The notes under the pieces: generated by a model
Seen by the model: the letters and a program-made list of their open reading frames with translations, nothing else
What the model was told of the DNA's origin: nothing
The model's database searches: none
Shown: positions 8,509 to 63,381 of the stretch, in pieces
Layout: every line of letters begins with the position of its first letter
Position numbering within the stretch: position 1 is the stretch's first letter
Position numbers and translations under genes: made by a program
Assembly: GCA_035519495.1 (NCBI GenBank)
Contig: DATIWE010000074.1
Span: forward strand, 12,323-76,322
Source of the DNA: Actinomycetota bacterium
GTDB taxonomy: Bacteria; Actinomycetota; UBA4738; HRBIN12
DNA: 64,000 bases
Direction of reading: 5' to 3'

Positions 8509-8556
8509 ATGACCATCGGCCACCATCAGCGGGGCCGGCCTCGTAAAGGAGAGAAC

Positions 8557-45462: not shown

Positions 45463-45471
45463 CGTTCCCCC

Positions 45472-45948: not shown

Positions 45949-46044
45949 TGGGCAGTCCTCCTTCGCTCGAGAGGAACCGTCTTGGCTGAGCGGCGAGCGT
46001 AATACGGACGCGCAGAGTGCGCGACCCGGTCGCCGGGAAGCCGT

Positions 46045-46668: not shown

Positions 46669-46704
46669 CCGGAGCTATCGGCAGGTGGGCGCCGAGCCTG
46701 AGGG

Positions 46705-47265: not shown

Positions 47266-47319
47266 CGCTGCAGGTATCGGACCTCCGCCCGGGTTCCTGA
47301 ACCCCGGTACCATCGCCTG

Positions 47320-48462: not shown

Positions 48463-48471
48463 GCTCACGCC

Positions 48472-49128
48472 ATGCTCATCGAGAACGAGTTCACCGTGAA
48501 ACGCCCGGTCGACGAGGTCTGGTCCTACCTCCTCGACGTCGAGAGGATCGCGCCCTGCATGCCGGGCGCCGAGCTGACCGAGACGATCGACGACCACACG
48601 TGGAACGGCAAGGTCAACATGGCGTTCGGTCCGGTGAAGATGGCCTTCGCCGGATCCGTGTCGATGGAGGAACGCGACGACGCCGCGCACCGGGTCGCGC
48701 TGAAGGCCAAGGGCACCGAGCAGAAGGGCAAGGGGGCCGCGAACGCGACGGTCACCTCGTGGCTCGAGCCGATCGACGGCGGGACGAAGGTGTCGATGCA
48801 GGCCGACATCACGCTCACCGGCGCGGCCGCGCAGATGTCTCGCGGCCTCTTGCCCGAGGTCTCGAGGCGGCTGACGCAGCAGTTCGCCGACTGCCTCGAA
48901 GAGAGCCTCGCCGCGAACGCGTCGCCCGCCGCTGCATCGCCGGCGGGTGCCTCGGCGCCGACCGACGGCGTCGCGGCATCCTCCGAGGCGGCCGCCGCGC
49001 AGAAGCCCGGGGCTCCCGTTGCCGCGAAGCCAGTCGGCGGCATCCGCCTCGGCCTCGCCGCGATCTGGTCGATGATCGCCGGGTTCTTCCGCAAGCTCTT
49101 CGGCGGAGGCGCGAAAGAAGCCTCGTGA
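48472..49128 (+). CDS. coxG: SRPBCC-fold CoxG family protein with Ala/Pro linker and C-terminal hydrophobic tail
   Basis: 218 aa. The CoxG-like N-terminal 150 aa begin FTVKRPVDEVWSYLLDVERIAPCMPGA, followed by a low-complexity linker and the tail GIRLGLAAIWSMIAGFFRKLF. Confidence 0.75.
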   Translation: MLIENEFTVKRPVDEVWSYLLDVERIAPCMPGAELTETIDDHTWNGKVNMAFGPVKMAFAGSVSMEERDDAAHRVALKAKGTEQKGKGAANATVTSWLEPIDGGTKVSMQADITLTGAAAQMSRGLLPEVSRRLTQQFADCLEESLAANASPAAASPAGASAPTDGVAASSEAAAAQKPGAPVAAKPVGGIRLGLAAIWSMIAGFFRKLFGGGAKEAS

Positions 49129-49685
49129 TCTCCGGCATCGTCCTGGCGGCCGGGACCGGGTCGCGGTTCGGCGCCACCAAGCAACTCGTCGAGGTCGACG
49201 GACGCCCGCTGTTCCTGCACGCGATCGACGCGCTCCGGGACGCGGGCGTCGGCGAGCTGATCCTGGTCACGGGACATGACGCGGAGGCGGTCGAGGCGGC
49301 GGCCCCTCCGGACGTTGCGGTCGTGCGGAACGCCGCGTTCCGAGACGGGCAGTCGACGTCGCTCGCGGCGGCGCTACACGCGGTCGCCGATGACAGCGAG
49401 GGCGCCGTGGTCCTCATGGCCGACCAGCCCGGCGTTCGCGCCGACGACGTCCGGGCCTTGACCGCGCGGTTCCGCGCCGAGAACGCCAGGATCGTCCGGC
49501 TCCGCTACGCCGATGGGCCGGGGCCGGCGCTGCTCTCCCGCGAGATCTACGCCGAAGCCGGCCACCTCCACGGCGACGCCGGCGCGCGCCTGCTCATGGC
49601 CTCGCACCCGGACTGGGTGGACGAGGTGCCGATCGATCGCCCGAGGCCGCCCGACGTGGATACCCCGGACGACCTCCCCCGATGA
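49125..49685 (+). CDS. MobA-like nucleotidyltransferase (molybdenum cofactor cytidylyltransferase MocA-like)
   Basis: GTG overlaps the coxG stop (GTGA). GIVLAAGTGSRFG..K and LMADQP. Confidence 0.8.
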   Translation: MISGIVLAAGTGSRFGATKQLVEVDGRPLFLHAIDALRDAGVGELILVTGHDAEAVEAAAPPDVAVVRNAAFRDGQSTSLAAALHAVADDSEGAVVLMADQPGVRADDVRALTARFRAENARIVRLRYADGPGPALLSREIYAEAGHLHGDAGARLLMASHPDWVDEVPIDRPRPPDVDTPDDLPR

Positions 49686-49736: not shown

Positions 49737-49916
49737 ATGCTCGGGGCACTGTTGATAGGGCTCGTCGTGTTCCTGGTCGCGACGTTCCCGGCCACGTGGC
49801 TGCTCATGTTGTTCCTCGGCAACGTGGGCGTGGGAACGTCGTACTGGGGAACGCTGCCGCTCGGCGTCGTCGTGTCGATGCTGCTGGGCGCCGCGTCGAG
49901 CAGAGGGAGGGCGTGA
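49737..49916 (+). CDS. hypothetical 59-aa two-TM membrane protein
   Basis: ATG after CAGGAGGGG. MLGALLIGLVVFLVATFPATWLLMLFLGNVG. Confidence 0.5.
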   Translation: MLGALLIGLVVFLVATFPATWLLMLFLGNVGVGTSYWGTLPLGVVVSMLLGAASSRGRA

Positions 49917-49918
49917 CG

Positions 49919-50116
49919 ATGATCGCAGGCGCGATCGCTTCGTGGCTGTACTGGACCCTGGTGATCATCATCTGGATCGCTATCGCGTTCTGGCCGGCGC
50001 GGGTCGCCGCCCGCAAGGGGCACAGTTTCTTCGGGTTCTTCCTCTTCAGCTTGATCTTCTTCCCGGCCGCGCTGATCGTTGCGTACGCGGTGAAGCCACG
50101 CGTGGAGATGATGTAA
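49919..50116 (+). CDS. hypothetical 65-aa two-TM membrane protein
   Basis: ATG 49919 after AGAGGGAGG (alternative GTG 49913 overlaps the previous stop). WTLVIIIWIAIAFWPARVAARKGHSFFGFFLFSLIFFPAALIVAY. Confidence 0.55.
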   Translation: MIAGAIASWLYWTLVIIIWIAIAFWPARVAARKGHSFFGFFLFSLIFFPAALIVAYAVKPRVEMM

Positions 50117-50180
50117 GGCCGTCAGACGAAGGAGCCGGCGCGTGCCAAGAAGCACCCGCCGGCTCCGACCAGAGCTCGAG

Positions 50181-50474
50181 TCAGTTCCCCAGGATCTTCG
50201 CCTTCTCGGCTGCGAACTCCTCGTCCGTCAGCGCTCCCGAGTCATGCAGCTTCGAGAGCTTCGCGATCTGGTCGTACGGATCTTCCGCGGGTGCGGCCGG
50301 AGCCGCCGGCGCGGCCGGCTGCGCTGCCTCCGCCGGCTGAGCTGCCGCGGCGTCCTGCGAGGCGTATTTCTTCTGCTGCCGACGGGCCGTGCGGCCCGAC
50401 ACCGCGGTCGCGGTCCCCGCGACCACCGCGGTCCTCGCGGCCACCCCTACGAGACCTGGTCCTCGACGCCTCAT
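50181..50474 (-). CDS. SHOCT domain-containing protein
   Basis: 97 aa. N-terminal Gly/Ala/Arg segment GLVGVAARTAVVAGTATAVSGR, an Ala/Pro linker, and C-terminal SHOCT motif IAKLSKLHDSGALTDEEFAAEKAKIL. Confidence 0.75.
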   Translation of the reverse strand: MRRRGPGLVGVAARTAVVAGTATAVSGRTARRQQKKYASQDAAAAQPAEAAQPAAPAAPAAPAEDPYDQIAKLSKLHDSGALTDEEFAAEKAKILGN

Positions 50475-50498
50475 GGTGGGTTCCCCTTCCTCTCGAGC

Positions 50499-50927
50499 TC
50501 AGATCGACTCGGCGTACTCCACGGCAGCTTCCACGACCTCGCGAGGAACGCGCTCGAGATCCCAAAGCTCGCCGCCCGCGTTTACGATCGCGTCGGCGAT
50601 CTTCGCGGCCCAGACGTCCTCCCACACGAGGAGTGCCACCGAGCTGTTCGGCTCGAGATCCTCGGCGACGGCCATGATGTCCTCGTCGTTCAGCAGACCG
50701 CCAGACTCGCTCCCGATCAGCTCCGAGAAGGCAGCGCCGACCTCAGACTCGAGGTCCTCGACCTCCATCGCTGCGGCGTCGCCGTTCGCGTCCTTGGCCA
50801 CGAACGCGAGATCGATGATGCGGATCGTGCCCGCTTCCACCTGCTCTTTGAGCGCCGGAACGATCTCTCCTGTGAACCGGTTCCCGGGGAACGCAACGAT
50901 CATGTACTCAACAGGTCCGATACCCAT
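50499..50927 (-). CDS. DUF6325 family protein, copy A
   Basis: 142 aa. PVEYMIVAFPGNRFTGEIVPAL..GTIRIIDLAFVAKDANGD. Paralog of 58133..58591. Confidence 0.7.
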   Translation of the reverse strand: MGIGPVEYMIVAFPGNRFTGEIVPALKEQVEAGTIRIIDLAFVAKDANGDAAAMEVEDLESEVGAAFSELIGSESGGLLNDEDIMAVAEDLEPNSSVALLVWEDVWAAKIADAIVNAGGELWDLERVPREVVEAAVEYAESI

Positions 50928-51358
50928 GGGCTCCCTCCCTTCCGTTCCTGGTCAGATCAGCGCGAGTCTCTCACGGGCCTACCCGGACCTGCACCCCGCG
51001 ACTCCCATCATCTCGGCTCCCATCGGGACGACGCACTCGCGGGCTCGTTCAGCGAGCAAGGCCATCCCCAACGCCGCCAGGCTGCGCGCGGTGGCGACGG
51101 GGTAGGGACGGCAGGCGGGTTCGACCGCTCCGGTCGAGGCACGGTGGTCTTCCTGCTCACGTTGCCGCTCGCGGACGTCGTGCTGGTCCTCGCCGCACGA
51201 CCCGTTCCGGCCCGGCTGAGCCTCTCGCGCTCTGTCGAGCCGTCCTCCTAGCTCCACGCGCGGCGTTTCATGCGGTTCGGACGATGACGCCCTTCCGGCG
51301 CACGATCTTTGATACGTATCGAGGGCATCCGACCGTGCCCAGGGAGAGGAGGCCTGAC

Positions 51359-51775
51359 ATGTCAGGTAGGGAGCCAAGTGCCGGTGCTGTTGGCTGGATC
51401 AGCTTCGCGGGGATCTTGTTGATCATAGGAGGCTCGTTCGCGATGCTGGCCGGCTTGGCCGGGATCATCAACCCCGACGCGTTCGTGGTCACGAAGGACA
51501 ACCTCGTCAAGGTGAGCACGAGCACGTGGGGATGGTGGCACCTCGTCATCGGGGCGATCGTGTTCTTCTCGGGCTTCGGCGTGTTCACCGGTAACGTGCT
51601 CGCACGGACGATCGGCGTGATCGCCGCGATCGTCAGCATGGTCTCGGCGTTCGTATGGATGCCCATCTACCCAATCTGGGGCATCACGATCGTCGCCATC
51701 GACTTCGCCGTCATCTGGGCGCTCACGGTGCACGGCCGCGACATCCAGAAGGCCGAGCAGATGGGAGCGATGTAG
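51359..51775 (+). CDS. DUF7144 family membrane protein
   Basis: ATG after GGGAGAGGAGG. GWISFAGILLIIGG..TWGWWHLVIGAIVFFSGFGVFTG..ARTIGVIAAIVSMV..PIYPIWGITIVAIDFAVIWAL. Confidence 0.7.
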   Translation: MSGREPSAGAVGWISFAGILLIIGGSFAMLAGLAGIINPDAFVVTKDNLVKVSTSTWGWWHLVIGAIVFFSGFGVFTGNVLARTIGVIAAIVSMVSAFVWMPIYPIWGITIVAIDFAVIWALTVHGRDIQKAEQMGAM

Positions 51776-51902
51776 CGAGAGCGACTCGCAGATCGCGCGC
51801 GTCGCCCCGCCGCTCCGTCTGCCCCACTTCGGGCGGACGGAGCGGGCGGCGCTCCGGGCAACGGTCCGTCCGAAACGTGGTGGGATGGAACGGAGGGGAA
51901 CG

Positions 51903-53351
51903 ATGGCCGCGAAGATGGTCGAACATCCCAGCGTGGAGGAACGGGAAGCACGCGGCAAAGCTGCGCGCCAGCAGGTTCCCCCTTCCAGCCACACCGGGTG
52001 GGCATCGGCCGCTGATCGGCCGGACCCGGTGGCGCTCCTGGAGGAGCAGAACGCGACCCGTGAGCCCGACCTCGTGCCCGTGCGCCACGGGCGGATGATG
52101 ATCTCGCCCTTCACGTTCTACCGGGGCGCGGCGAAGATCATGGCCGCCGACCTGAGGGACACCCCACGGTCAGGGCTGACGGCCCAGCTCTGCGGCGACG
52201 CTCACCTGTCGAACTTCGGTGTGTTCGCCTCACCCGAACGGAACCTCCTCTTCGACCTGAACGACTTCGACGAGACCCTGCCAGGCCCGTTCGAGTACGA
52301 CGTGGAGCGCATGTCCGCGAGCTTCACGATCGCCGCACGCAACAATGGGTTCACGAAAGCCGAGGCCCGCGACGCGACCCTCGCCTCGGTGAACGCCTAC
52401 CGGAAGGCGATGGCGGAGTTCGCGCGGATGGGCCAGATGGACATCTGGTACGCCCACCTTTCCGAGCAGCAGCTGATGGCGGCCCTCAAGAGCTTCGCTG
52501 CTGCACAAGAGGCTGCGGATAAGAGCAAGAAGGAGAAGAAGGCGGCGAAGGGAGAGGTGAAGACCGCGAAGAAGGCCGCCCAGAAGGCGCGCACCCGCGA
52601 CAGCCTCCAGGCGCTGTCGAAACTCGGTGAGCTCGTGGACGGTCGGTACCGGATCGTGAGCCAGCCGCCGATCATCGTGCCGGCGCGCGACTTCGAGGCG
52701 GCCTACGGCATGTCGCTGGACGAGGTCCAACAGGCCGTCCACGCGCAGTTCCGCGCGTACCGGTCGACCCTGCAGGATGACCGGCGCCACTTGCTCGAGC
52801 GCTTCGAGATCATCGACATGGCTCGCAAGGTCGTGGGTGTCGGTAGCGTCGGCACGCGGGCGTTCATCATCTTGCTCCAGGGACGCGACCAGAGCGATCC
52901 GCTGTTCCTGCAAGTGAAAGAGGCGACGGCGTCGGTGCTGGAGGACCATCTGCCGAAGAGTCGCTACAAGCAGCACGGCGAGCGCGTCGTCCAGGGTCAA
53001 CGGTTGATGCAGGCCGTGAGCGATATCTATCTCGGATGGACCAGAGGTGTGCAAGACAACCGGTACCTGTATTGGCGCCAGCTCCGTGACATGAAGGGGT
53101 CGGCCGCGATCGAGTCGATGAAACCTTCTACCCTCGCGTTCTACGCTCAGCAATGCGGATGGACGCTCGCTCGTGCGCACGCTCGTTCGGGAGATCCGAT
53201 CGCGATCGCCACGTACCTCGGCAAGGGCGATGCGTTCGACCGGTCGGTCACGGACTTCTCGGAGCGGTACGCAGACCAGAACGAGCAGGACTATCAGGCG
53301 TTCGTCGGGGCGATCCGGTCCGGTCGCCTGGAAGCCGTCGAGGGCGTCTGA
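51903..53351 (+). CDS. DUF2252 domain protein (kinase-like), copy 2
   Basis: ATG 51903 after GGAGG. PFTFYRGAA, CGDAHLSNFG, LFDLNDFDE, VVGVGSVGTRAF. Has a Lys-rich insert and visibly more A/T-ending codons than copies 1 and 3. Confidence 0.85.
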   Translation: MAAKMVEHPSVEEREARGKAARQQVPPSSHTGWASAADRPDPVALLEEQNATREPDLVPVRHGRMMISPFTFYRGAAKIMAADLRDTPRSGLTAQLCGDAHLSNFGVFASPERNLLFDLNDFDETLPGPFEYDVERMSASFTIAARNNGFTKAEARDATLASVNAYRKAMAEFARMGQMDIWYAHLSEQQLMAALKSFAAAQEAADKSKKEKKAAKGEVKTAKKAAQKARTRDSLQALSKLGELVDGRYRIVSQPPIIVPARDFEAAYGMSLDEVQQAVHAQFRAYRSTLQDDRRHLLERFEIIDMARKVVGVGSVGTRAFIILLQGRDQSDPLFLQVKEATASVLEDHLPKSRYKQHGERVVQGQRLMQAVSDIYLGWTRGVQDNRYLYWRQLRDMKGSAAIESMKPSTLAFYAQQCGWTLARAHARSGDPIAIATYLGKGDAFDRSVTDFSERYADQNEQDYQAFVGAIRSGRLEAVEGV

Positions 53352-53414: not shown

Positions 53415-54266
53415 TCACTCCGGCGGCGCCTCCAGCGGGGCGTTCGAGGGATCTGCAACATCGAGCTTCACGTCGCCCTGGGCCGCCATCTTCCCCCTGA
53501 TCCCGCCGCCCTTCCCCCGCAAGATCCAGGCGAAGCCGACGGCCACGACCCCGCCGATGAAGGGGCCCACGATGTAGACCCACCAGTCGTGGTAATTCCC
53601 ACTCACGATCATCGGGCCGAGGGAGCGCGTGGGGTTCATCGATGTTCCGCTGATCGGGGCCGACCACAGGCCCGCCAGCGCGATATACGCCCCGACCCCG
53701 ATCGCGCCGAAGACCCCGACGTTCTGGGCACCCGAGGCTGTGCCGAGGATGGTGCTCAGCAAGCCGAGGGTCAGCACCGCTTCGAAGATGAGCGCCGTCG
53801 TGGCGGTGATGCCGGGTCCGGGCTCGGTCGTTCCGAGGCCCCCGATGTTGCCGAGCGTCGCGCGGAGGAACAGCACCGCGAGGATCGAGCCGATCAGCTG
53901 CACGATGACGTAGCCCGGTACCCGCTTCCATGGGAAGTCGCCACGCATCGCGAAGGCCACGGACACGACGGGATTGAAGTGGGCGCCCGAGACGGCGCCC
54001 ATGAACAGGATCATCGCCATGACCATCAACCCCGGCGCGGTCACCCGGACGGCGAGAGGGATCTGCCCACCGCTCTGGGCGTTGACGACCGCGCCGCCTG
54101 CCGCGACGAGCACCAGGAAGAACGTGCCGATGAACTCCGAGAACAATCGCCGACCCTCGAACTTCGGGTCGTAGAAATCCTTGAGCTCGCCGCCGATCCT
54201 CCTCTCGAAGGCTTCGATGACCCCGCCGCGGGCCTCCAACGCATCGCTCGATCCTCCGTCCGCCAC
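53415..54266 (-). CDS. MIP/aquaporin family channel with non-canonical NPV / NPT boxes (NIP/AqpN-like)
   Basis: 283 aa from GTG 54264-54266, preceded by AAAGGGGGG. SGAHFNPVVSVAFA and SGTSMNPTRSLGPM. Confidence 0.8.
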   Translation of the reverse strand: MADGGSSDALEARGGVIEAFERRIGGELKDFYDPKFEGRRLFSEFIGTFFLVLVAAGGAVVNAQSGGQIPLAVRVTAPGLMVMAMILFMGAVSGAHFNPVVSVAFAMRGDFPWKRVPGYVIVQLIGSILAVLFLRATLGNIGGLGTTEPGPGITATTALIFEAVLTLGLLSTILGTASGAQNVGVFGAIGVGAYIALAGLWSAPISGTSMNPTRSLGPMIVSGNYHDWWVYIVGPFIGGVVAVGFAWILRGKGGGIRGKMAAQGDVKLDVADPSNAPLEAPPE

Positions 54267-54430
54267 GACCGCCCCCCTTTTCGTCCCGGCGACTCTATAC
54301 CCACACGCCTGGACGACGTCTGCCGCCGACGCGTACCCGAACCGTGGCCGGATATGGTACGCAGAGGGTCCTCGAACTCGAACGGGGAGCGGCCGGGAGT
54401 GAACCATCGGATGAACGGACGGCGACGGCG

Positions 54431-55972
54431 GTGGATGAGCGTGAGGTGAAGTTGGCGGCGCCGCCGGCGTTCGCGATGCCGGATCTGTCGACGGCCGCGG
54501 AAGGCCTGGGCGTTGCGCCGGCGCCGCCCGAGCGCACGACCACGACCTATCACGACACGGCCGACCTCCGGCTCGCCCGGGCCGGCGCGAGCCTGCGCTT
54601 CCGGACCGGGCAGGGCTGGACCCTGAAGCTCCCCGGCGGGGAGCGCGGCGGGCTGCTGCGACGGCCCGAGTTCCTCTTCGAGGGCGCACCGGAAGAGGTC
54701 CCCGCCCCCGCGGCGAACCTCGTGCGAGGGATCATCCGGACGGCGCCGCTGGAACGCGTGGTCCGCCTCCGCACCGTGCGGCGCCGCTCGGTCCTGATGT
54801 CCGAGGACGGCACGGGACTCCTCGAGGTCGATGACGACGAGGTCTCGATCCTCGGGCCCGGGAACCGGATCGCCGGGCGCTTCCGCGAGCTCGAGGTGGA
54901 GCTCCTCACGGACGCGCCCGACGAGTCCCTCGCCCCGGTGGTGGCCCTGCTGCGCGCGGCGGGCGCGGGTGAGCCCGATCCGACCTCGAAGTACCTGCGC
55001 GCGCTCGGCTCGCGCGGCTCGCAGCCGCCGGACCTCGTCCCGGTCCGCGTGGCGAAGAAGGCGACCGCCGCCGACGTGATCCGGGCCGCGATCGTCGAGT
55101 CGGTCATGCAGCTGCTCGCCGCGGACCCGGTCGTCCGCCTCGACGAGGACATCGAGGGGGTCCACCGGATGCGCGTGGCGAGCCGCCGCCTGCGTTCGCA
55201 CCTTCGGACGTTCGCGTCGTTCACCGACGCCGAGTGGAACGTGTCGCTCCGGGAGGAGCTCGGGTGGCTCGGCTCGACCTTGGGCAGGAACCGCGACGCG
55301 GACGTGCTCCTGGAGCGACTCCGCGCCTTGACCGCGCAGGCCCGCGAGACGACCAACGCCGACCGGCTCCTCCGGGCCCTCGAAGCGGAGCGCGACGCCG
55401 CGCACGCGGCGGTGCTCGAGGCCCTCGGGAGCGATCGCTATCCTCCGCTGCTCGACCGGCTCGTCGACGCCGCCCGAGGACCCGCCTTCACGCCCGAGGC
55501 CGACGGGCCGGCGGCCGGGCTGCTCACCCCGGTGCAGGCGCAGTGGGCATCGCTGCGCCGGCGCGTGAAGTGCTCCGCGAAGCCACCGACCGACGAGCAG
55601 CTTCACCGCATCAGGATCCACGCGAAGCGCACGCGGTACGCGGCCGAGGCCCTCCTCCCCGTCGCGCGGAAGGACGCTCGGCGGTTCGCCGCGGCGGCCG
55701 CCGACCTCCAAGGGGTCCTGGGCGAGCAGCACGACGCGATCGTGATGCGCGGCTGGCTCCGGGCGCAGGCGACCGAGCGGAGCGCCGACCGCATGACCGC
55801 CTTCGTGGCGGGCGAGCTGGCCGGACTCGAGCAGGTCCGCGCCGAGGCGGCGCGCCAGCGGTGGCGTCGACGCTACGCCCGACTGACGACGGCGAAGGAG
55901 CCCGAGCGTTGGCTGAAGCGTCGGCGGCCGGCGAGGCCGGTCGAGGACGCGGCCGCACCGACATCGGACTGA
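54431..55972 (+). CDS. CYTH and CHAD domain-containing protein
   Basis: GTG 54431 gives N-terminus (M)DEREVKL with the CYTH ExExK motif. Also FRELEVELL. CHAD helices VHRMRVASRRLRSHLRTF and LHRIRIHAKRTRYAAE. Confidence 0.8.
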   Translation: MDEREVKLAAPPAFAMPDLSTAAEGLGVAPAPPERTTTTYHDTADLRLARAGASLRFRTGQGWTLKLPGGERGGLLRRPEFLFEGAPEEVPAPAANLVRGIIRTAPLERVVRLRTVRRRSVLMSEDGTGLLEVDDDEVSILGPGNRIAGRFRELEVELLTDAPDESLAPVVALLRAAGAGEPDPTSKYLRALGSRGSQPPDLVPVRVAKKATAADVIRAAIVESVMQLLAADPVVRLDEDIEGVHRMRVASRRLRSHLRTFASFTDAEWNVSLREELGWLGSTLGRNRDADVLLERLRALTAQARETTNADRLLRALEAERDAAHAAVLEALGSDRYPPLLDRLVDAARGPAFTPEADGPAAGLLTPVQAQWASLRRRVKCSAKPPTDEQLHRIRIHAKRTRYAAEALLPVARKDARRFAAAAADLQGVLGEQHDAIVMRGWLRAQATERSADRMTAFVAGELAGLEQVRAEAARQRWRRRYARLTTAKEPERWLKRRRPARPVEDAAAPTSD

Positions 55973-55999
55973 GGTCCGACGTCCGAGCGAGGAGGAACG

Positions 56000-57439
56000 A
56001 TGGGAACCGCAACGACCACGCGGCCGGAACGTCGGGCCAGCCCACGCCCCGGGCACCGCACGGGGGGAGAACGCGCCGCGCTCGGCAAGGCGGCCCGGAC
56101 CGGGTCGCCTCGCTCGAGCCACGGGACCTGGGAGCCGGCCGCGGACCGTCCGGATCCGATCGCTCTGCTCGAGGGGCAAGCGGCGACGCGGCTGCCGGAG
56201 CTCGTGCCCATCCGCTACGGCCGCATGCTGGCGACGCCGTTCACGTTCTACCGCGGCGCCGCGGTGATCATGGCGGCGGATCTGGCGGCCACCCCCCGGT
56301 CGGGGATCACGACGCAGGTCTGCGGCGACGCTCACTTGTCGAACTTCGGCCTGTTCGGCTCGCCGGAGCGCGAGCTCGTGTTCGACATCAACGACTTCGA
56401 CGAGACGCTCCCAGGCCCCTGGGAGTGGGACGTCAAGCGGCTCGCGGCGAGCCTGTCGATCGCCGGGCGGAACAACGCGTTCACCGACGCGGAGCGCAGC
56501 GACATCCTGCTCGCGTCGTTGCGCGAGTACCGCGAGGCGATCTGGGAGTTCGCCGGGATGCGGAACCTCGACGTCTGGTACGCGCACCTGCAGATCAAGG
56601 AAGGCCTCCCGCGCGTCCGCGAGGCGCTCGACAAGAAGAACGTGAAGGCCGCGGAACGCATCGTCGAGAAGGCCAAGACCAAGGACAGCCTGCAGGCGTT
56701 CTCGAAGCTCACCCGGATCGTCGACGGGTCGCCCCGCATCATCAGCGATCCGCCCCTGCTCGTCCCGGTCGACGAGATCCTCTCGCCGGCGGAGGCGGAG
56801 CGGTTCCTCGGCAGCGCCCACGACCTGATCCGCTCCTACCGGCGGACGCTGCTCGGGGATCGCCGCCGGCTGCTCGAGGATTTCCGGTTCACGGACATGG
56901 CCCGCAAGGTCGTCGGGGTGGGGAGCGTCGGGACGCGGGCGTGGGTCATCCTGATGATGGGCAAGGACCAGGACGACCCGCTCTTCCTGCAGGCGAAGGA
57001 GGCGCAGGCCTCGGTGCTCGAGCCGTACGTGGGCGCCAGCCGGTACGCGAATGCGGGGCAGCGCGTCGTCGAGGGGCAGCGGTTCATGCAGGCGGCCAGC
57101 GACATCTTCCTGGGCTGGCAGCGGACCGCCGGGATCGACGGCGTCGAGCGCGACTTCTACATCCGCCAGCTCCGCGACTGGAAGGGCTCGTGGGCGCCGG
57201 AGTCGATGGTGCCGTCCGTGATGACGCTCTACGGGCGGATGTGCTGCCGGACCCTCGCGCGGGCGCACGCCCGCTCGGGCGACCGGATCGCGATCGCCTC
57301 CTACCTGGGCAAGAGCGACGTCTTCGACCGGGCGATCGCCGCGTTCGCGGAGCTCTACGCGGACCAGAACGAGAAGGACCACGCCGCCCTCGCGAAGGCG
57401 GTGCGCTCCCGGAAGATCAAGGCGACCACCGGCGTGTGA
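56000..57439 (+). CDS. DUF2252 domain protein (kinase-like), copy 3
   Basis: 479 aa. ATG after GAGGAGGA, 27 nt after the CYTH-CHAD stop. PFTFYRGAA, CGDAHLSNFG, VFDINDFDE, VVGVGSVGTRAW. Confidence 0.9.
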   Translation: MGTATTTRPERRASPRPGHRTGGERAALGKAARTGSPRSSHGTWEPAADRPDPIALLEGQAATRLPELVPIRYGRMLATPFTFYRGAAVIMAADLAATPRSGITTQVCGDAHLSNFGLFGSPERELVFDINDFDETLPGPWEWDVKRLAASLSIAGRNNAFTDAERSDILLASLREYREAIWEFAGMRNLDVWYAHLQIKEGLPRVREALDKKNVKAAERIVEKAKTKDSLQAFSKLTRIVDGSPRIISDPPLLVPVDEILSPAEAERFLGSAHDLIRSYRRTLLGDRRRLLEDFRFTDMARKVVGVGSVGTRAWVILMMGKDQDDPLFLQAKEAQASVLEPYVGASRYANAGQRVVEGQRFMQAASDIFLGWQRTAGIDGVERDFYIRQLRDWKGSWAPESMVPSVMTLYGRMCCRTLARAHARSGDRIAIASYLGKSDVFDRAIAAFAELYADQNEKDHAALAKAVRSRKIKATTGV

Positions 57440-57555
57440 ACCTCCGTGAAGGAGACCCGCGCTCTCGAGGCCGGGGAATCATCCGAACGGGAGGATGCGG
57501 GGCAAGGACCTTCGTCCCTACGGTGTGCGGGACCGTCGGACGGAGGAGGCTCGTC

Positions 57556-58026
57556 ATGGCAGGCGACGCGATCGAGCAGGAGCTCGAGGACATCGAGGCG
57601 ATGTTCGTGCAGGTCGCCCAGGAGGCGACCGTCGAGGGGGGCGTGCTCACGCTCCACGACGTCGGAGCTTCGACGCTCTACTTCTCCGATCGCCCGAAGC
57701 GGGTGGTCGGACACGTCACCTCGTCCCAGTTCGTGGACATGTGGGACGAAGGTGACAACAGCTTCAAGCAGGACCCCCCGAACGCCGTGCTCGCGTTCCT
57801 GGAGCCGGGCGAGGACATGCCGGACGACGTGGTCGTCGTGATCCGCGACCCGCGGATGGAAGGCGCGTCGATCACGTACCGGATCGAACCGCTCGAGGGA
57901 GAGCCGCCCGCGCACGCGAAGGGCGGCGTGACGCTGTTCATCGACCCGTTCGGACGCCCGCTCAGCCCGGTGTCGGCCGCCGGCATGCACCGGCGCGAGC
58001 GCCGCCGCGTGCGTCGTCGCGTCTGA
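57556..58026 (+). CDS. hypothetical 156-aa protein with Arg-rich C-terminal tail
   Basis: ATG after GGAGGAGG. High GC3. Ends HRRERRRVRRRV. No family recognised. Confidence 0.6.
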   Translation: MAGDAIEQELEDIEAMFVQVAQEATVEGGVLTLHDVGASTLYFSDRPKRVVGHVTSSQFVDMWDEGDNSFKQDPPNAVLAFLEPGEDMPDDVVVVIRDPRMEGASITYRIEPLEGEPPAHAKGGVTLFIDPFGRPLSPVSAAGMHRRERRRVRRRV

Positions 58027-58132
58027 TGGGACGCGCAACCCGGTTGGGTCAACGGCTGCGGCGTTCGCCGGCGCGATCCGGCCCGGGCGCATCGAGGCGC
58101 TCGAGGATGGCTGAGGACGGAAGGAGATCCAG

Positions 58133-58591
58133 ATGACGGATACCGAGATCGACGAGTTCGGACCTGTCGACTACGTCGTGGTCGAGTTCCCCGCGGGCAG
58201 CAGCAACTTCACGGGAGAGATGGCCAAGGAGCTGAGCTCGCTCGTGGAGCGGGGGCTCATCCGGGTCCTCGATCTCCTCGTCCTGGCGAAGGACGCCGAA
58301 GGCAACCTCGAGGCGTTCGAGATCGACGATCTCGACGAGATGGACGAGCTGAGGGCGCTCGAGGCGCAGGTGGCCGAGATCTTGGCCGAGGAAGACGTCG
58401 TCAACCTCGCCGCCGCGATGGACGACGGGAGCACGGCCGGCGTGATCGTCTGGGAGAACTCCTGGGCGGCGCCGTTCGCCTCAGCCGCGCGCCGCTCGGG
58501 CGGTCAGTTGATCGCGTCGGGCAGGATCCCGATCCAGGCGATCGTCGCATCGTTGGAGGCCGAAGAGGCCGCGATGGAGGAAGGAGACTGA
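58133..58591 (+). CDS. DUF6325 family protein, copy B
   Basis: 152 aa. ATG after GGAAGGAG. PVDYVVVEFPAGSSNFTGEMAKEL..GLIRVLDLLVLAKDAEGN. Confidence 0.7.
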   Translation: MTDTEIDEFGPVDYVVVEFPAGSSNFTGEMAKELSSLVERGLIRVLDLLVLAKDAEGNLEAFEIDDLDEMDELRALEAQVAEILAEEDVVNLAAAMDDGSTAGVIVWENSWAAPFASAARRSGGQLIASGRIPIQAIVASLEAEEAAMEEGD

Positions 58592-58592
58592 T

Positions 58593-58748
58593 ATGCCCCT
58601 CAGGCCAGCACGTGCCGCTCGACGCGGCGTGGTCGGTGCCCCGGTGGCCCGGACAGCGGCCGTCGTCGGGACCGCGGCGGTCGTTACGCACGGGGTCAAC
58701 CGTCGCACGGATCGTCGCGACGACCGCAGGGACCGACGTCGGATCTGA
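58593..58748 (+). CDS. 51-aa Gly/Ala/Arg-rich peptide, homologous to the N-terminus of the SHOCT protein
   Basis: ATG 1 nt after the DUF6325 stop. MPLRPARAARRGVVGAPVARTAAVVGTAAVVTHGVNRRTDRRDDRRDRRRI. Not in the ORF track (under 60 aa). Confidence 0.55.
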   Translation: MPLRPARAARRGVVGAPVARTAAVVGTAAVVTHGVNRRTDRRDDRRDRRRI

Positions 58749-58753
58749 CCGCG

Positions 58754-59422
58754 ATGGACGGCATGAGCGCCGCACCGCAGCCGAAGATCCTGATCGTGTA
58801 CTACTCGCTCACCAAGCAGACCGGTCGGGTCGCGGACGTGATGACGCAAGCTCTCGAGGCACGGGGCTACGAGGTCACGGAGGCGCTGATCGAGTTCACC
58901 GACGAACGATGGGTCCCGAAGCTGTCTCAGTTCCCGATGGAACGCCCGATCCCCCAGATCGGATCGATCCTGATGGCGCAGCTCCGCCACAAGACCGGCG
59001 AGATCCGGATCCCGCCGGGGGCGGCGACGGGTGACTACGACCTGGTGCTCATCGTGTCTCCCACGTGGTGGTTCCAAACGAGCATGCCGATCCGGTCATA
59101 CCTCGAGTCGCCGGCGGCCAAGAACGTCCTGAGCGGGAAGCCTTTCGCGTGCGCTTCGGTCTCCCGCCGCTACTTCAGCATCAACCTCGGCCAGCAGCGG
59201 AAGCTTGCGGAGAAGGACGGCGGGCGGTTCATCGACCACACGCACTTCGTGGTCGCGGGAGGGCAGGTCAAGTCGATGCTGTCGTGGCTCGGCTACATGA
59301 AGCACGGCGAGGCGCAGGCGCACGTGATGGGACTGAAGATGCCGCCGCCCAACCTCCAACCGAACTTCGAAGAGCAAGCGCGCGGCTTCGTCAATGACGT
59401 GATCGGTCGGGCGCTCACGTGA
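58754..59422 (+). CDS. flavodoxin-like fold protein
   Basis: 222 aa. KILIVYYSLTKQTGRVADVM and DLVLIVSPTWWF are typical of flavodoxin_4-type proteins. Confidence 0.55.
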   Translation: MDGMSAAPQPKILIVYYSLTKQTGRVADVMTQALEARGYEVTEALIEFTDERWVPKLSQFPMERPIPQIGSILMAQLRHKTGEIRIPPGAATGDYDLVLIVSPTWWFQTSMPIRSYLESPAAKNVLSGKPFACASVSRRYFSINLGQQRKLAEKDGGRFIDHTHFVVAGGQVKSMLSWLGYMKHGEAQAHVMGLKMPPPNLQPNFEEQARGFVNDVIGRALT

Positions 59423-59457: not shown

Positions 59458-60336
59458 CTACTTCGGCTTGGGGAGACCGATGTCCTTGGCGACGGCGAGG
59501 TCCCTCGCGTGGTCCGTCAACGTCCGGGCCAGCACCGCCGTCTCCTTGGCGCCCTTGCCGGCGAGGTACCGGCTCTTCGGCTTGTCGGCCATGACCGCCT
59601 TCGCGACCTCCCGCGCGAGGACCTCCGCCGGGGCGGGATCGGCGGCGGTCTTCTCGACGAACCGGCGGATCGCCGCGATCTGGTCCGCGTAGAGCCGATA
59701 CCCGTCGTCACCCAGCCGCTCTGCGGATCCATCGAGTTCGGCGAGGGTCTTGCCGAAGATGGCGGTGTCCGTGGCACCCGGATCGATCAACGACACGGGG
59801 ATCTTCCACTGCCTGAGCTCGAGCCGGAGCGCGTCACTCAGCGCCTCCATCCCGAACTTGGAAGCGCTGTACGCGCCATGGATCGGCAGCGCCAACCGTC
59901 CGCCGATCGAGCCGACGTTGACGATCCGTCCGTGTCCTCGCCGGATCAACGGGAGGAACGCCTGGGTGACGGCGACCTGTCCGATCAGGTTGACCTCGAG
60001 CTGCATGCGCAGATCCTCGATCGGCTGGAACTCGATGGGTGCCGGCTTCACGATGCCCGCGTTATTCACGAGTGCGGCGAGGCCGCGCTTGCCGACGGCG
60101 TCCGAGACGGTCTCGGCGGCTGCCGCGATCGAGGCTCCATCGGTGATGTCGATCACGACGTGTATCAGCCGCCCCCTCGCTCGCGACTCGAGCGCCGCTC
60201 CATCTCCGGGGCGACGCACGCCCGCGAAGACACGGAACCCTTCCGCCGCGAGGCGCAACGCCGATGCCGCACCGATACCCGTCGACGTCCCCGTGATGAA
60301 CACGCCGCCGCGCGTGCTCGACGATCGGCCGCTCAT
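59458..60336 (-). CDS. SDR family oxidoreductase
   Basis: Start taken at MSGRSS. VFITGTSTGIGAA and catalytic YSASKFGMEAL. Confidence 0.85.
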   Translation of the reverse strand: MSGRSSSTRGGVFITGTSTGIGAASALRLAAEGFRVFAGVRRPGDGAALESRARGRLIHVVIDITDGASIAAAAETVSDAVGKRGLAALVNNAGIVKPAPIEFQPIEDLRMQLEVNLIGQVAVTQAFLPLIRRGHGRIVNVGSIGGRLALPIHGAYSASKFGMEALSDALRLELRQWKIPVSLIDPGATDTAIFGKTLAELDGSAERLGDDGYRLYADQIAAIRRFVEKTAADPAPAEVLAREVAKAVMADKPKSRYLAGKGAKETAVLARTLTDHARDLAVAKDIGLPKPK

Positions 60337-60444
60337 GTGTGCCCTCCCCTCGGACGGAGCGCCCACTATAGGCTCGCTTCTGTCACCCGACCGCGTTCCG
60401 AAGTGAACCGAGACAGGTAGTCACCGACCACGAGGAGGCGAACC

Positions 60445-62853
60445 ATGAGTGAACCCGATCGCAGCAGTCTCCCGATCCGCAGGGAGCCCTTCGCGGGCGT
60501 GGCCAACAAGACGCTCGACGGCTCCACGCCCGACTGGAACCTCATCGGCCACCCCACACCACCCGACGGCGCGCCCAACGTGCTGCTCGTCCTGATCGAC
60601 GACGCGGGCTTCGGGAACCCCAGCACCTTCGGTGGCCCGATCCAGACACCGAACTACACCCGCATCGCAGCCGAGGGCCTGCGGTACAACCGCTTCCACG
60701 TCACGGCCCTGTGCTCCCCGACACGTGCCGCACTGCTGACGGGTCGCAACAACCACGCGGTGGGGTTCGGCTCGGTCGGTGAGTTCGCCGGCGGGTTCCC
60801 CGGCTACTCGGCATCGCTGCCGAGGGACTGCGCGCCGCTCCCTCGGATCTTGCGCGACAACGGCTACAGCACGTCCGCGTTCGGCAAGTGGCACCTGACG
60901 CCCGACGGGCAGCAGGGGCCGGCGGGTCCGTTCGATCGGTGGCCCAACGGCTGGGGGTTCGACTACTTCTACGGCTTCCTGGCCGGCGACTCGGGGCAAT
61001 GGGATCCCTGTCTGATCGAGAACCAGAAGGTGATCGGAACCCCGGAGGGGTTCTACGACGAGGAAGACCCGTACTACTTCCCGGATGCGATGGCCGATCG
61101 GGCGATCGAGTGGCTCCACGGCGTTCGCGCCCAGGATGCCGACAAGCCGTTCTTCCTCTACTTCTCGACCGGCTGCAGCCACGCGCCGCACCACGTCGCG
61201 CAGGCCTGGGCCGACAGGTACCGAGGCGCGTTCGATCAAGGTTGGGACCGGCTCAGGGAGGAGACGTTCGCACGGCAGAAGGAGCTCGGCGTCGTACCTG
61301 CCGAGGCCGAGTTGACGCCCCGGGATGACGCCTTCCCCGCCTGGGAGGACGTTCCCGAGCAGCTGAAGGCGTTCTACGCGCGCCAGATGGAGGTGTACGC
61401 CGGCTTCTCGGAGAACGCCGATCACAACGTGGGACGCGTTCTCGATGCGATCGACGAGCTCGGCGAGCTAGACGACACCGTGGTCATCTGGATCTGGGGC
61501 GACAACGGGGCCAGCATGGAGGGCACCGTCACGGGGTCGTTCAACGAGATGACGATGCAGAACGGCATCCCGCTGACCGATGAGATGCAGCTCCAGCTGG
61601 CCGAGCGGTTCGGCGGCATGGACAAGTGGGGCGCGCAGATCATGGACCCCCACTACGGCGCGGCATGGGCTTGGGCGGGGAACACGCCGTTCAAGTGGGG
61701 CAAGCAGGTCGGCTCGCACCTCGGAGGCACGAGGAACCCGATGGTCGTGCGGTGGCCGGAACGGATCACGGATGCCGGCGCGCTACGCTCGCAGTTCGGC
61801 CACGTGATCGATGTCGCTCCCACGATCCTCGAGCTCGCTGGGATCCCGCAGCCGGAGACGGTCGACGGGATCGAGCAGGAGCCGATGCACGGGACCAGCT
61901 TCGCGGCCACGCTCGCCGCCGCCGACGCACCGGAGTTCCGGACGCAGCAGTACTTCGAAACGATCGGCAACCGAGGCATGTACAAGGACGGTTGGTGGCT
62001 CGCGATGAAGACCGAGCGGATCCCGTGGGTCGTCACGCCCGACGCCTTGAAGCCGTACGCGCCGGGGGTCTGGGATCCGGACGCCGGCCCTGCAGAGCTC
62101 TATTACCTGCCGGACGACTTCACGCAGGCGCACGACCTCGCTGCCGAACACCCGGACAAGGTGCAGGAGCTGAAGGATCTATTCTGGACGGAGGCTGAGA
62201 GGTACAAGGTGCTGCCGCTGCTGGCCACCCTGTCGACGTTCTTCGGCATCCTCCCCCCGATCGATCAGCAGACGACATTCGAGTTCCGGGGCGACGTGCA
62301 GAACGTCCTATCGGGGATGATCCCGAGGATCTACAACCACTCGTATGCCATCTCGGCGGACCTGGTGGTGCCGGAGGGCGGCGCCGAGGGCGTGATCGTC
62401 GCGGAGTCGGATCACCTCGGCGGGTTCACCCTCTACGTGAAGGACGGGAAGCTCACCCACACCTACTCGATGATGGGTGTGTTCGTGTTCAAGCAGGTCG
62501 CGGAGGAGGACCTTCCGACCGGTGAGATCACCGTGCGGATGGAGTTCGCAGCCGATGAGGCGAAGCCGGCGACGGGCGGGGAGGTCACGTTGTTCATCGA
62601 CGACCGACCCGTCGGGAAGGGCCGGATGGATCACACGGTGCCGATCCGGTTCTCCGCCTACGCGGGGATGGACATCGGCCGTGATAACGGCGGTGTCGTC
62701 GACCTCGCGTACGAAGACCGCAAGCCGTTCGCCTTCACGGGCACGGTGAAGAAGGTCGTGTTCGACATCAAGCCGCACCTGTCGGACCAGGACGAGCTCG
62801 ACATCCACGCGGAGGCACATCGCGGACACGCCGCGCATGCTCTGTCCGGCTAG
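60445..62853 (+). CDS. arylsulfatase (formylglycine-dependent sulfatase family)
   Basis: 802 aa. NVLLVLIDDAGFG and the FGly motif CSPTRAALLTGRN. GKWHL. Confidence 0.9.
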   Translation: MSEPDRSSLPIRREPFAGVANKTLDGSTPDWNLIGHPTPPDGAPNVLLVLIDDAGFGNPSTFGGPIQTPNYTRIAAEGLRYNRFHVTALCSPTRAALLTGRNNHAVGFGSVGEFAGGFPGYSASLPRDCAPLPRILRDNGYSTSAFGKWHLTPDGQQGPAGPFDRWPNGWGFDYFYGFLAGDSGQWDPCLIENQKVIGTPEGFYDEEDPYYFPDAMADRAIEWLHGVRAQDADKPFFLYFSTGCSHAPHHVAQAWADRYRGAFDQGWDRLREETFARQKELGVVPAEAELTPRDDAFPAWEDVPEQLKAFYARQMEVYAGFSENADHNVGRVLDAIDELGELDDTVVIWIWGDNGASMEGTVTGSFNEMTMQNGIPLTDEMQLQLAERFGGMDKWGAQIMDPHYGAAWAWAGNTPFKWGKQVGSHLGGTRNPMVVRWPERITDAGALRSQFGHVIDVAPTILELAGIPQPETVDGIEQEPMHGTSFAATLAAADAPEFRTQQYFETIGNRGMYKDGWWLAMKTERIPWVVTPDALKPYAPGVWDPDAGPAELYYLPDDFTQAHDLAAEHPDKVQELKDLFWTEAERYKVLPLLATLSTFFGILPPIDQQTTFEFRGDVQNVLSGMIPRIYNHSYAISADLVVPEGGAEGVIVAESDHLGGFTLYVKDGKLTHTYSMMGVFVFKQVAEEDLPTGEITVRMEFAADEAKPATGGEVTLFIDDRPVGKGRMDHTVPIRFSAYAGMDIGRDNGGVVDLAYEDRKPFAFTGTVKKVVFDIKPHLSDQDELDIHAEAHRGHAAHALSG

Positions 62854-62871
62854 GACCGAGGAGGGATCCCG

Positions 62872-63381
62872 ATGGCGAAAGACCCTACGGACGTGCTGAT
62901 CGGTGGCTACCTGTCATCGAAGGCCGCGCACGAGGATTACGAGGCCGTCCTGAACTGCGGCGCCGACGTGATGGGCGCCGTGGTGGTGAGCAAGGACCTC
63001 GAGGGCAACCTGTCCGTCGAGCAGACCGACCACATGGTCAAGGAAGGCGCGGAGGGACTGGCTGCGGTCGGGTTCGCGGTCGGACTCTTCGCGCCCCCGC
63101 TGCTGGCGGCGACGGCGATCGGTGCGGTCGTCGGCGCGGGCGCCGGGAAGGTGCTGCACAAGAAGTCCGGCAGCAAGATCGAGGAGCAGGCGGGCGAGAC
63201 GATCCCCCTCGGCGGTGCCGGGCTGATCGTCGCCTACAAGCACGCGAACGCAGACACGATCGAGCCGAGCGTCACCCGCGCCATCAAGAAGGTGGTCGGG
63301 GAAGCGGAGGGTCGACACGTCGAGGCGCTGAAGGGCGCGCTCGCGGACGCTCAACGGAAGATGACAGAGGAGGGGGCCTAG
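62872..63381 (+). CDS. DUF1269-like membrane protein, paralog of 8557..9090
   Basis: 169 aa. ATG after GAGGAGGG. AVVVSKDLEGNLSV and Gly-zipper AAVGFAVGLFAPPLLAATAIGAVVGAGAG. Confidence 0.6.
   Translation: MAKDPTDVLIGGYLSSKAAHEDYEAVLNCGADVMGAVVVSKDLEGNLSVEQTDHMVKEGAEGLAAVGFAVGLFAPPLLAATAIGAVVGAGAGKVLHKKSGSKIEEQAGETIPLGGAGLIVAYKHANADTIEPSVTRAIKKVVGEAEGRHVEALKGALADAQRKMTEEGA

Follow-up and report, generated by a model that had tools for sequence, protein, structure and literature searches.

Relation of the locus to described systems

In Actinoplanes sp. SE50/110, 17 promoters have the MalT box 5′-TCATCC-5nt-GGATGA-3′ over their −35 region, with the end of the box 34.4 ± 1.0 nt from the transcription start site (TSS) (Droste et al. 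2020, PMC7567727). This strain's 'maltose-regulated large genomic region', or MRLGR, comprises 51 genes, and deletion and overexpression of malT placed 37–42 of them under its control, as transcription was lost upon deletion and raised upon overexpression (PMC7567727). The MRLGR has SHOCT and DUF1269 genes, its counterpart in A. missouriensis has DUF2252, and the gene order is shuffled between strains (PMC7567727). The MalT box of E. coli, as quoted in the same paper, is 5′-GGGGA(T/G)GAGG-3′ with the core GGA(T/G)GA. A second relevant system is ppk-pptA-SLI_4382 of Streptomyces (ppk1, a CHAD phosin and a NUDIX gene), an experimentally characterized PhoP-dependent operon of the Pho regulon (PMC8003754). 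Here we report on six co-directional genes, beginning with a CYTH-CHAD gene and a DUF2252 gene, at positions 54431–59422 of a 64,000-nt stretch of an Actinomycetota bacterium genome (GCA_035519495.1, contig DATIWE010000074.1, 12,323–76,322, forward strand), referred to as the window. A previous examination, made from the sequence alone and called here the sequence-only reading, had proposed that the six genes form one polyphosphate (polyP)-linked stress module.

Our analysis indicates that the block is probably made up of two units inside a shuffled island: a displaced CYTH-CHAD gene with a DUF2252 gene (DUF2252b), and a set beginning with an unnamed gene, ORF3, that is driven by a MalT-type box. 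The block would thus be a composite within a larger island (about 49.9–63.4 kb), drawn from a poorly characterized gene pool that appears to be kept together yet freely reshuffled in many Actinomycetota. The first unit (Unit A) would consist of CYTH-CHAD followed by DUF2252b; in a narrow lineage, probably Solirubrobacterales, the CYTH-CHAD gene would have moved out of the ppk1-CHAD-nudix operon where it usually lies and come to stand ahead of a kinase-like DUF2252 paralogue. The second (Unit B) would start with its own promoter and continue through ORF3, a DUF6325 gene (DUF6325b), an Arg-rich peptide and a flavodoxin-like gene. The −35 region of this promoter is predicted to be overlapped by a TCATCC-N5-GGAGGA dyad centered near −42, a candidate site for a MalT-like activator of the large ATP-binding LuxR (LAL) type, and the MalT-type regulon in question would be a homologue of the Actinoplanes MRLGR. 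As far as the sequence can tell, the regulatory logic of the island is that of the already described MalT/LAL regulon, so far known only from Micromonosporaceae, to which a displaced phosin gene has been added; the block would then not be a new polyP machine.

The six open reading frames

The six open reading frames (ORFs) lie on the + strand where the sequence-only reading had placed them, separated by gaps of 27, 116, 106, 1 and 5 nt:

54431–55972, + strand, CYTH-CHAD (ORF1), Pfam CYTH (1.4e-12) and CHAD (1.5e-54)
56000–57439, + strand, DUF2252 paralogue b (DUF2252b, ORF2), Pfam DUF2252 (6.5e-144)
57556–58026, + strand, ORF3, no Pfam family
58133–58591, + strand, DUF6325 paralogue b (DUF6325b, ORF4), Pfam DUF6325 (8.7e-12)
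58593–58748, + strand, Arg-rich peptide of 51 aa, no Pfam match, conserved in relatives
58754–59422, + strand, flavodoxin-like (ORF6), Pfam match below the gathering threshold (Flavodoxin_4, 1.4e-4)

A codon log-odds gene caller trained on the DUF2252 genes of this lineage independently recovered five of the six ORFs together with their start codons; the 51-aa peptide scored under its threshold. The domains that had been assigned to ORF1, ORF2 and ORF4 were all found with Pfam, and an NCBIfam scan added for the block only a weak flavodoxin match. The EREVK (ExExK) motif, the His/Arg helices and both Arg-rich tails were present as quoted, and the aquaporin said to be transcribed divergently is a MIP-family channel on the opposite strand (53415–54266). 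Good ribosome-binding sites had been ascribed to all six genes; this holds for DUF2252b, ORF3, DUF6325b and the Arg peptide, which have strong Shine-Dalgarno sequences, and not for CYTH-CHAD and the flavodoxin-like gene, where they are weak.

Gene order in relatives and around DUF2252 and CYTH-CHAD

The loci most closely related to the block are arranged as follows, with the percentage identity of the protein named in brackets:

L083/L084 (ORF3, 92%): MIP(−), CYTH-CHAD, DUF2252, ORF3, DUF6325, Arg peptide, sulfatase, DUF1269
L085 (ORF3, 88%): MIP(−), CYTH-CHAD, DUF2252, ORF3, DUF7144, DUF2252, sulfatase, DUF1269
L086 (CHAD, 83%): SHOCT(−), DUF6325(−), MFS, MIP(−), CYTH-CHAD, DUF2252, LPG synthase
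L169 (flavodoxin, 87%): DUF7144, DUF2252, MIP(−), CHAD, DUF2252, DUF6325, Arg peptide, flavodoxin, sulfatase, DUF1269; without ORF3
L170 (flavodoxin, 78%): sulfatase, DUF1269, DUF2252, a 55-aa ORF, DUF6325, 56-aa Arg peptide homologue, DUF1269, SDR, flavodoxin, further genes, LAL(−); without CHAD
L087 (CHAD, 67%): neither ppk1 nor DUF2252 nearby
L088/L089 (CHAD, 59%): ppx-ppk1-CHAD-nudix, with DUF2252 divergent

None of the relatives L083–L086, L169 and L170 had the intact six-gene order. MIP(−)/CYTH-CHAD/DUF2252 is the only stable part, and it is so in no more than a narrow clade. The remaining four genes (ORF3, DUF6325, the Arg peptide and the flavodoxin-like gene) can replace one another and are drawn from a wider pool. 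The shuffled pool also includes DUF2252, DUF1269, DUF7144, SHOCT proteins, aquaporin, sulfatase and SDR.

The wider neighborhood of DUF2252 was surveyed in 80 loci (±10 kb flanks, one genome per species, 58–69% identity) from Solirubrobacterales, Thermoleophilia, Acidimicrobiia and Actinomycetes, which were queried with all window proteins. CYTH-CHAD was found by tblastn and phmmer in two of the 80, each time 7–8 kb off, and the flavodoxin-like gene in none. The commonest neighbor was a MalT/LuxR-type large ATPase regulator (LAL; 24 loci), and among the called genes DUF1269 occurred in 23 loci, the SHOCT partner in 18, DUF6325 and DUF7144 in 17 each, aquaporin and PLDc_N-SHOCT in 16 each, and sulfatase in eight. 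ORF3 was present in six, every time as the immediate neighbor. When 82 loci were searched by tblastn with the window proteins, the counts were similar except for DUF1269 (six), the sequences of which diverge fast. PPK2 was also considered as a recurrent neighbor and dismissed, as a Walker-motif regular expression located it in only two of 85 loci.

The converse survey covered 80 CYTH-CHAD-anchored loci from metagenomes (45–59% identity). PPK1 was encoded directly upstream of CYTH-CHAD in 59 of them, a NUDIX or NUDIX-His-phosphatase gene directly downstream in 76, and DUF2252 anywhere in the flanks in three. On a contig of 3.06 Mb, pstSCAB-ppk1-CYTH-CHAD-NUDIX-HisPhos is separated from the DUF2252 locus by 1.35 Mb. 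The polyP link that had been ascribed to the CYTH-CHAD gene is therefore borne out by its orthologues. This usual linkage to ppk1 and NUDIX is missing from the window, as PPK1, PPX and NUDIX-HisPhos had no match anywhere in the 64 kb.

These counts bear on the proposal that the six genes form a single operon, in which CHAD would tether the complex to polyP, DUF2252 would be a kinase dependent on polyP or a nucleotide, and the proteins with Arg tails would bind polyP. The genes are indeed co-directional with short gaps, CYTH-CHAD followed by DUF2252 is kept in L083, L085, L086 and L169, and the Arg tails are invariant; DUF2252 is divergent from ppx-ppk1-CHAD in L088/L089, and ppk2 is reported in Micromonosporaceae MalT regions. 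However, outside the narrow clade CHAD and DUF2252 co-occur in 2–4% of loci (2/80 and 3/80), which is about the chance level (about 1–3%) for genomes of 4–5 Mb with two to three DUF2252 copies. Moreover, ORF3, DUF6325 and the flavodoxin-like gene are each absent from some close relative, ORF3 has its own conserved predicted promoter (see below), no relative has a MalT box before CHAD, and CHAD-anchored loci are nearly free of the motif. We consider this proposal unlikely. What stands of it is that CYTH-CHAD is polyP-linked and that the other genes belong to a recurrent, co-regulated set; the single conserved functional unit does not, since the order of the genes varies, ORF3 has a predicted box promoter of its own, and the neighborhoods within 10 kb show CHAD (2/80) and the flavodoxin-like gene (0/80) around DUF2252, and DUF2252 around CHAD (3/80), so rarely.

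It could also be that the adjacency is fortuitous, the genes being independent rearrangement products of a recombination-prone region with neither regulation nor function in common. The gene order is different in every relative that we examined, as this would predict. The same families nevertheless lie together far above chance across Actinomycetota classes, and they share a specific, position-constrained cis element, which makes mere coincidence improbable.

A MalT-type box and predicted promoter inside the block

Two strong sites for the box were present in the 64 kb, one before ORF3 and one before the DUF7144 gene:

57479–57495, + strand, MalT box TCATCC-GAACG-GGAGGA, 26.8 bits with the position weight matrix (PWM), abutting the −35 region of the ORF3 promoter
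57519–57524, + strand, predicted −10 hexamer TACGGT, 43 nt after the start of the PWM match at 57476
51268–51284, + strand, second MalT box TCATGC-GGTTC-GGACGA, 26.0 bits with the PWM, upstream of DUF7144-DUF2252a

The end of the 25-nt PWM match that starts at 57476 is separated from ORF3 by 56 nt, and the TSS is predicted near 57531, about 35–36 nt past the box. An alignment was made of the spacers between DUF2252 and ORF3 (window, L083 and L085) and between DUF2252 and DUF6325 (L169). Across these four genomes, the flanks were variable and the box and −10 hexamer invariant; in L169, which is without ORF3, the same predicted promoter stands directly ahead of DUF6325. No box was found before CYTH-CHAD in the window, L083, L085, L086 or L169. 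Because the box and the −10 hexamer are conserved before ORF3 and there is none before CYTH-CHAD, we read the block as two units. The 27-nt gap between CYTH-CHAD and DUF2252b, together with the lack of an activator box, suggests that these two genes form one transcript, and with its strong Shine-Dalgarno sequence DUF2252b is probably co-transcribed with CYTH-CHAD. The boxes ahead of ORF3 and DUF7144 suggest that Unit B and DUF7144-DUF2252a would be switched on with the rest of the MalT-type regulon.

The second box (25-nt match, 51265–51289) overlaps the start of the longest DUF7144 ORF at 51284. Translation of DUF7144 therefore probably begins at the ATG at 51359, ahead of which lies GGAGAGGAGG; the DUF7144 match in Pfam sets in downstream of this ATG.

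Other signals were also searched for. The SigB/SigF-type promoter (GTTT-N13-18-GGGTA) had no match in the window, and a generic sigma-70 and terminator scan gave nothing above shuffled sequences. The folding energies of the 116-nt gap, the 106-nt gap and the aquaporin-CHAD spacer, where structured RNA or terminators were looked for, were no better than those of shuffles.

Properties of the box

The motif emerged from de novo discovery, in which k-mers enriched upstream of pool genes, relative to other genes in the same loci, yielded GGGTGAT(GAC). Aligned GGGTGAT instances showed a dyad, which was refined by expectation maximization to the weight matrix (A/T)TCAYCC-N5-GGRYGATG(C/A); over 117 sites, the 17-bp dyad has the consensus TCAYCC-N5-GGRYGA. 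Matches of at least 18 bits numbered 151 in 85 loci (1.62 Mb), 144 of them in the intergenic 17% of the sequence, and 117 of the 144 (81%) pointed in the direction of the next gene, whose start codon followed after a median of 80 nt. With a matrix made from the odd-numbered loci, cross-validation in the 42 even-numbered loci gave 115 matches, of which 110 were intergenic (2.9 ± 0.9 with shuffles). The density of the box was 8.9 per 100 kb in DUF2252 loci vs 0.5 per 100 kb in CHAD-anchored loci. The box was also tied to the presence of a LAL gene in the same locus (17/24 vs 18/56 loci; odds ratio 5.1, p = 0.003).

The variable pair of the dyad was T-G in 32 sites, C-A in 28, C-G in 23 and T-A in 21, with no covariation, which argues for a protein-binding DNA site. 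An RNA hairpin was rejected, as C-A was as common as C-G at this pair and A-C/A-G occurred at a second pair. In 117 sites, a TAnnnT hexamer was most frequent 42–43 nt past the position where the 25-nt matrix match begins. With this fixed distance, the dyad is centered near −42 and its right arm falls on the −35 element, as at promoters of class II activators. An alternative-sigma −35/−10 pair was likewise rejected: the two arms are only 5 nt apart, and a separate −10 hexamer lies 42–43 nt downstream.

Judged by its letters and its position, the dyad is the box already published for MalT, the LAL activator of Actinoplanes sp. SE50/110. The likeness to the MRLGR includes the palindromic box, which is the same and overlies the −35 region equally far from the start site (predicted in the window), SHOCT and DUF1269 genes, DUF2252 in A. 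missouriensis, many membrane, transport and hypothetical proteins, and shuffled order; LAL regulator genes are embedded in or adjoin the MRLGR. The window differs in that it comes from a distant lineage, has only two boxes and no LAL gene in 64 kb, and contains CYTH-CHAD, ORF3, DUF6325, flavodoxin-like and sulfatase genes, in contrast to the arginine-deiminase and peptidase genes of Actinoplanes. As for E. coli MalT, the right arm GGAGGA of the window box equals the core hexamer and the site overlaps the −35 region. Unlike the direct repeats of E. coli, the repeats at the sites in actinobacteria are inverted, with 5 nt between the arms, and the target genes are unrelated to maltodextrin use.

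In Solirubrobacterales, Thermoleophilia, Acidimicrobiia and several Actinomycetes, the box precedes genes for DUF2252, DUF1269, DUF6325 and DUF7144, members of the ORF3 family, aquaporins and ion channels. Through a single regulator and a single box, many domains of unknown function would thus become open to induction and study. Other genes preceded by the box in L001–L085 encode cytochrome bd subunit I, transport proteins (K+, CLC and Na+/H+), a lipid kinase of the DAGK family, a GH15 glucoamylase or trehalase, and SfLAP, CMD and Amphi-Trp proteins; in L081 the box precedes a sensor kinase with a NarL-type regulator. Taken together, the targets look like a regulon that adapts ion homeostasis, the membrane and storage carbohydrates.

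Several observations weigh against the two-unit reading. No LAL regulator gene was found in the 64-kb window, although relatives (L083, L084, L085, L169 and L170) have one, and the gene may lie beyond the window edge. The 116-nt gap is without a terminator-like structure, and read-through from DUF2252b into ORF3 may occur. The box was present in only 35 of the 80 DUF2252 loci and directly upstream of 13 DUF2252 genes, showing that membership of the DUF2252 family in the regulon is partial. Finally, polyP genes are sometimes found in such islands, as ppx-ppk1-CHAD divergent from DUF2252 (L088) or as PPK2-like genes (L012, L058), and ppk2 lies in the corresponding MalT regions of other Micromonosporaceae (PMC7567727). 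The occasional presence of ppk2, ppk1 and CHAD genes in these regions leaves room for a loose connection of the island to polyP, to which we assign a low probability.

The CYTH-CHAD gene

In a PDB sequence search, the CHAD part matched the CHAD crystal structure 6qv5 (7.5e-14). The CYTH residues E3, R4, E5 and K7 were kept in at least 90% of 16 orthologues, in all of which the tunnel residues R47, R56, R58, K66, E153, E155 and E157 and the CHAD residues H245, R248, R252, R255, H392, R395, K399, R400 and R402 were invariant. The protein is thus likely to be a functional polyP-binding triphosphate-tunnel enzyme of the PptA/YgiF type, a class in which we presume the YgiF-type CYTH-CHAD protein of E. 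coli to be its counterpart. With the Streptomyces operon ppk-pptA-SLI_4382 it shares the CYTH and CHAD architecture, with ExExK and the basic His/Arg core of CHAD, and its orthologues lie exactly between ppk1 and NUDIX. In contrast, the gene in the window and in close relatives has no ppk1, ppx or NUDIX neighbor and is flanked by aquaporin and DUF2252 instead.

The spacer between the aquaporin and CYTH-CHAD (54267–54430) contains blocks conserved across the window, L083, L085, L086 and L169. One of these, GACTCTATACCC at 54291–54302, is −10-like on either strand. Further conserved blocks are GGATGTGGTACGCA and, just ahead of the CYTH-CHAD start codon, GGATGAACGGATGG; the block CATCGGATGAACGGATGGCGAC, with two GGATGR direct repeats inside, lies immediately before the GTG start. 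On the minus strand of the spacer, GTTCATCCGATGGTTCACTCC has two TTCAYYCC repeats 12 nt apart, an arrangement that recalls, but differs from, the 11-nt PHO-box repeats.

DUF2252 and ORF3

DUF2252b matches PF10009 over profile positions 1–391 of 392 (6.5e-144) and is 59% identical to paralogue a. Three DUF2252 paralogues or orthologues share without change the catalytic-loop-like CGDAHLSN, DFD, the Gly-rich loop and K333. These stand in a permuted order, which agrees with the placement of DUF2252 in the PKinase clan, with the lobes flipped, by Pfam (PMC9758233). DUF2252b is predicted to be a circularly permuted enzyme resembling protein kinases. A PDB sequence search with DUF2252 gave no homologue of solved structure.

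ORF3 belongs to an unnamed family with 2509 homologues without a Pfam model and 4546 clusters at 50% identity. Its AF2 model is β-rich (pLDDT 78), and a PDB fold search with ORF3 and DUF6325 gave no significant match (best TM score about 0.3–0.4). The C-terminus, GRPLSPxS-RRRxRRRxRRR, is almost invariant. In relatives, the ORF3 domain is fused to STAS (P0433, P0382) or to GAF-GAF-PP2C/SpoIIE (P0395), such fusions being few among the 150 family representatives listed. Five of ten longer ORF3 relatives have a SHOCT domain with a linker in place of the Arg tail. The fusions and the SHOCT endings hint at a signaling or docking role of ORF3. P0389 is a further relative in this group.

Another possible explanation is a signaling pair similar to partner-switching modules, with DUF2252 as the kinase and ORF3 as its substrate or a sensor; the remaining genes would be bystander cargo of the same regulon. 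ORF3 adjoins DUF2252 in all six of the anchored loci that have it, as it does in the window, L083 and L085. The ORF3 domain fusions to STAS and GAF-GAF-PP2C/SpoIIE, the intact catalytic motifs of DUF2252 and the invariant GRPLSPxS segment ahead of the Arg tail would also fit such a pair. On the other hand, ORF3 is without a DUF2252 neighbor in L001 and three genes away from it in L002, DUF2252b is without ORF3 in L086 and L169, and the fusions are few. As a whole, the explanation seems unlikely to us. The likeness to partner-switching modules (STAS antagonist and PP2C phosphatase) consists of these fusions and of a SpoIIAA-like gene in L170/L171; the differences are that no STAS, PP2C or anti-sigma kinase was present among the Pfam/NCBIfam-annotated genes at 49.7–63.4 kb, the only stretch scanned, and that DUF2252 is not a GHKL-type anti-sigma kinase. 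The SpoIIAA-like gene follows the flavodoxin homologue in both of these loci.

A more far-reaching idea is that DUF2252 and the ORF3 domain constitute an unrecognized signaling pair of Actinomycetota, with ORF3 as phospho-acceptor or sensor, a role suggested by its fusions elsewhere to STAS and GAF-PP2C. The poly-Arg or SHOCT tail would then dock on a polyanion, and in this lineage the recruited CYTH-CHAD gene would provide the kinase with polyP or triphosphate or sense either for it. If true, it would give the widespread MalT-box regulon a polyP-coupled stress-signaling branch; we regard it as improbable. The analysis also draws attention to the ORF3 family (>4500 clusters at 50% identity) and to the two-gene cassette of DUF6325 with a small partner that has a SHOCT or Arg tail.

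DUF6325, the Arg peptide and the flavodoxin-like gene

DUF6325b is an acidic, soluble protein with an α/β fold in its AF2 model (pLDDT 69). It has a weak local match to the DUF1269 protein of the window, and the two families appear to be distantly related. A PDB sequence search with DUF6325 gave nothing useful.

The Arg peptide was kept in L169 and L083; the copy in L084 is read through by a frameshift. Compared with L169, L083 and L084, there were 21–25 nt differences, 14–18 of them at third codon positions, and the first 35 residues were identical, indicating a real gene under purifying selection. A homologue of 56 aa follows DUF6325 in L170. The SHOCT proteins that usually follow DUF6325, the one in the upstream pair of the window included, align with the peptide over their first ~45 aa. 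By this alignment, it would be a SHOCT-less version of the usual DUF6325 partner, translationally coupled to DUF6325. The recurrent cassette consists of DUF6325 and a small protein, often translationally coupled, with an R-rich/ARTAVVAGTA N-terminal segment and a SHOCT or Arg-rich end. It was seen in the window at 50181–50927 (−) and 58133–58748 (+) and in L009, L030, L031, L061, L078, L086 and L170, and may be a split counterpart of DUF1269.

The flavodoxin-like protein, with 979 homologues, has weak Flavodoxin_4 and PRK07116 matches. Its gene follows the Arg peptide of the DUF6325 cassette in L169, and in L170/L171 it overlaps an SDR gene near DUF1269, DUF6325 and DUF2252. In other genomes it accompanies SDR, DUF1269, sulfatase and DUF6325.

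The surrounding island

The remaining features of the island, and related genes elsewhere in the window, are:

49913–53351, upstream half of the island (Pfam): small membrane protein, SHOCT partner (−), DUF6325a (−), DUF7144, DUF2252a
50181–50474, − strand, SHOCT partner
50499–50927, − strand, DUF6325a
about 51359–51775, DUF7144
51885–53351, DUF2252a
53415–54266, − strand, MIP-family aquaporin (TIGR00861, 9e-41), divergent from CYTH-CHAD
59458–63381, downstream half of the island (NCBIfam): SDR (−), arylsulfatase, DUF1269
35063–36259, + strand, third DUF2252, 43–51% identical to the other two paralogues
8509–9090, + strand, DUF1269-like gene, outside the island

The sequence-only reading had missed the upstream paralogous set (SHOCT partner, DUF6325a, DUF7144 and DUF2252a), the third DUF2252, and the SDR, sulfatase and DUF1269 genes downstream. 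No MalT box was found at the third DUF2252 or at the DUF1269-like gene.

The start of the aquaporin was set from the codon model and orthologues of 282 aa. Its motifs are NPV/NPT in place of the canonical NPA/NPA, and it lies beside CYTH-CHAD in L083, L085, L086 and L169 as well. Among the aquaporins counted around DUF2252 (16/80 loci, one of the commonest neighbors), some have a MalT box upstream. The sulfatase-DUF1269 pair was found next to DUF2252 in L002, L044, L082, L083, L085, L169 and L170, and the SDR-flavodoxin pair was repeated in L170–L173. In L082 (11765–14662), DUF1269 shares a few bases with sulfatase; the two came out of gene calling as a single ORF of 969 aa, so they may be fused. 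The sole Rfam match in 49–64 kb, an ASdes small RNA at 51109–51191 (+), was discarded as chance-level (21 bits vs a gathering threshold of 40, E = 0.79).

The genes at 43102–49685 of the window, directly upstream of the island, form a cluster for a molybdenum hydroxylase of the CO/xanthine dehydrogenase-like kind and include XdhC, CoxG and MocA-like genes. It is syntenic with L086 (1–4233) and marks a conserved left border of the variable region.

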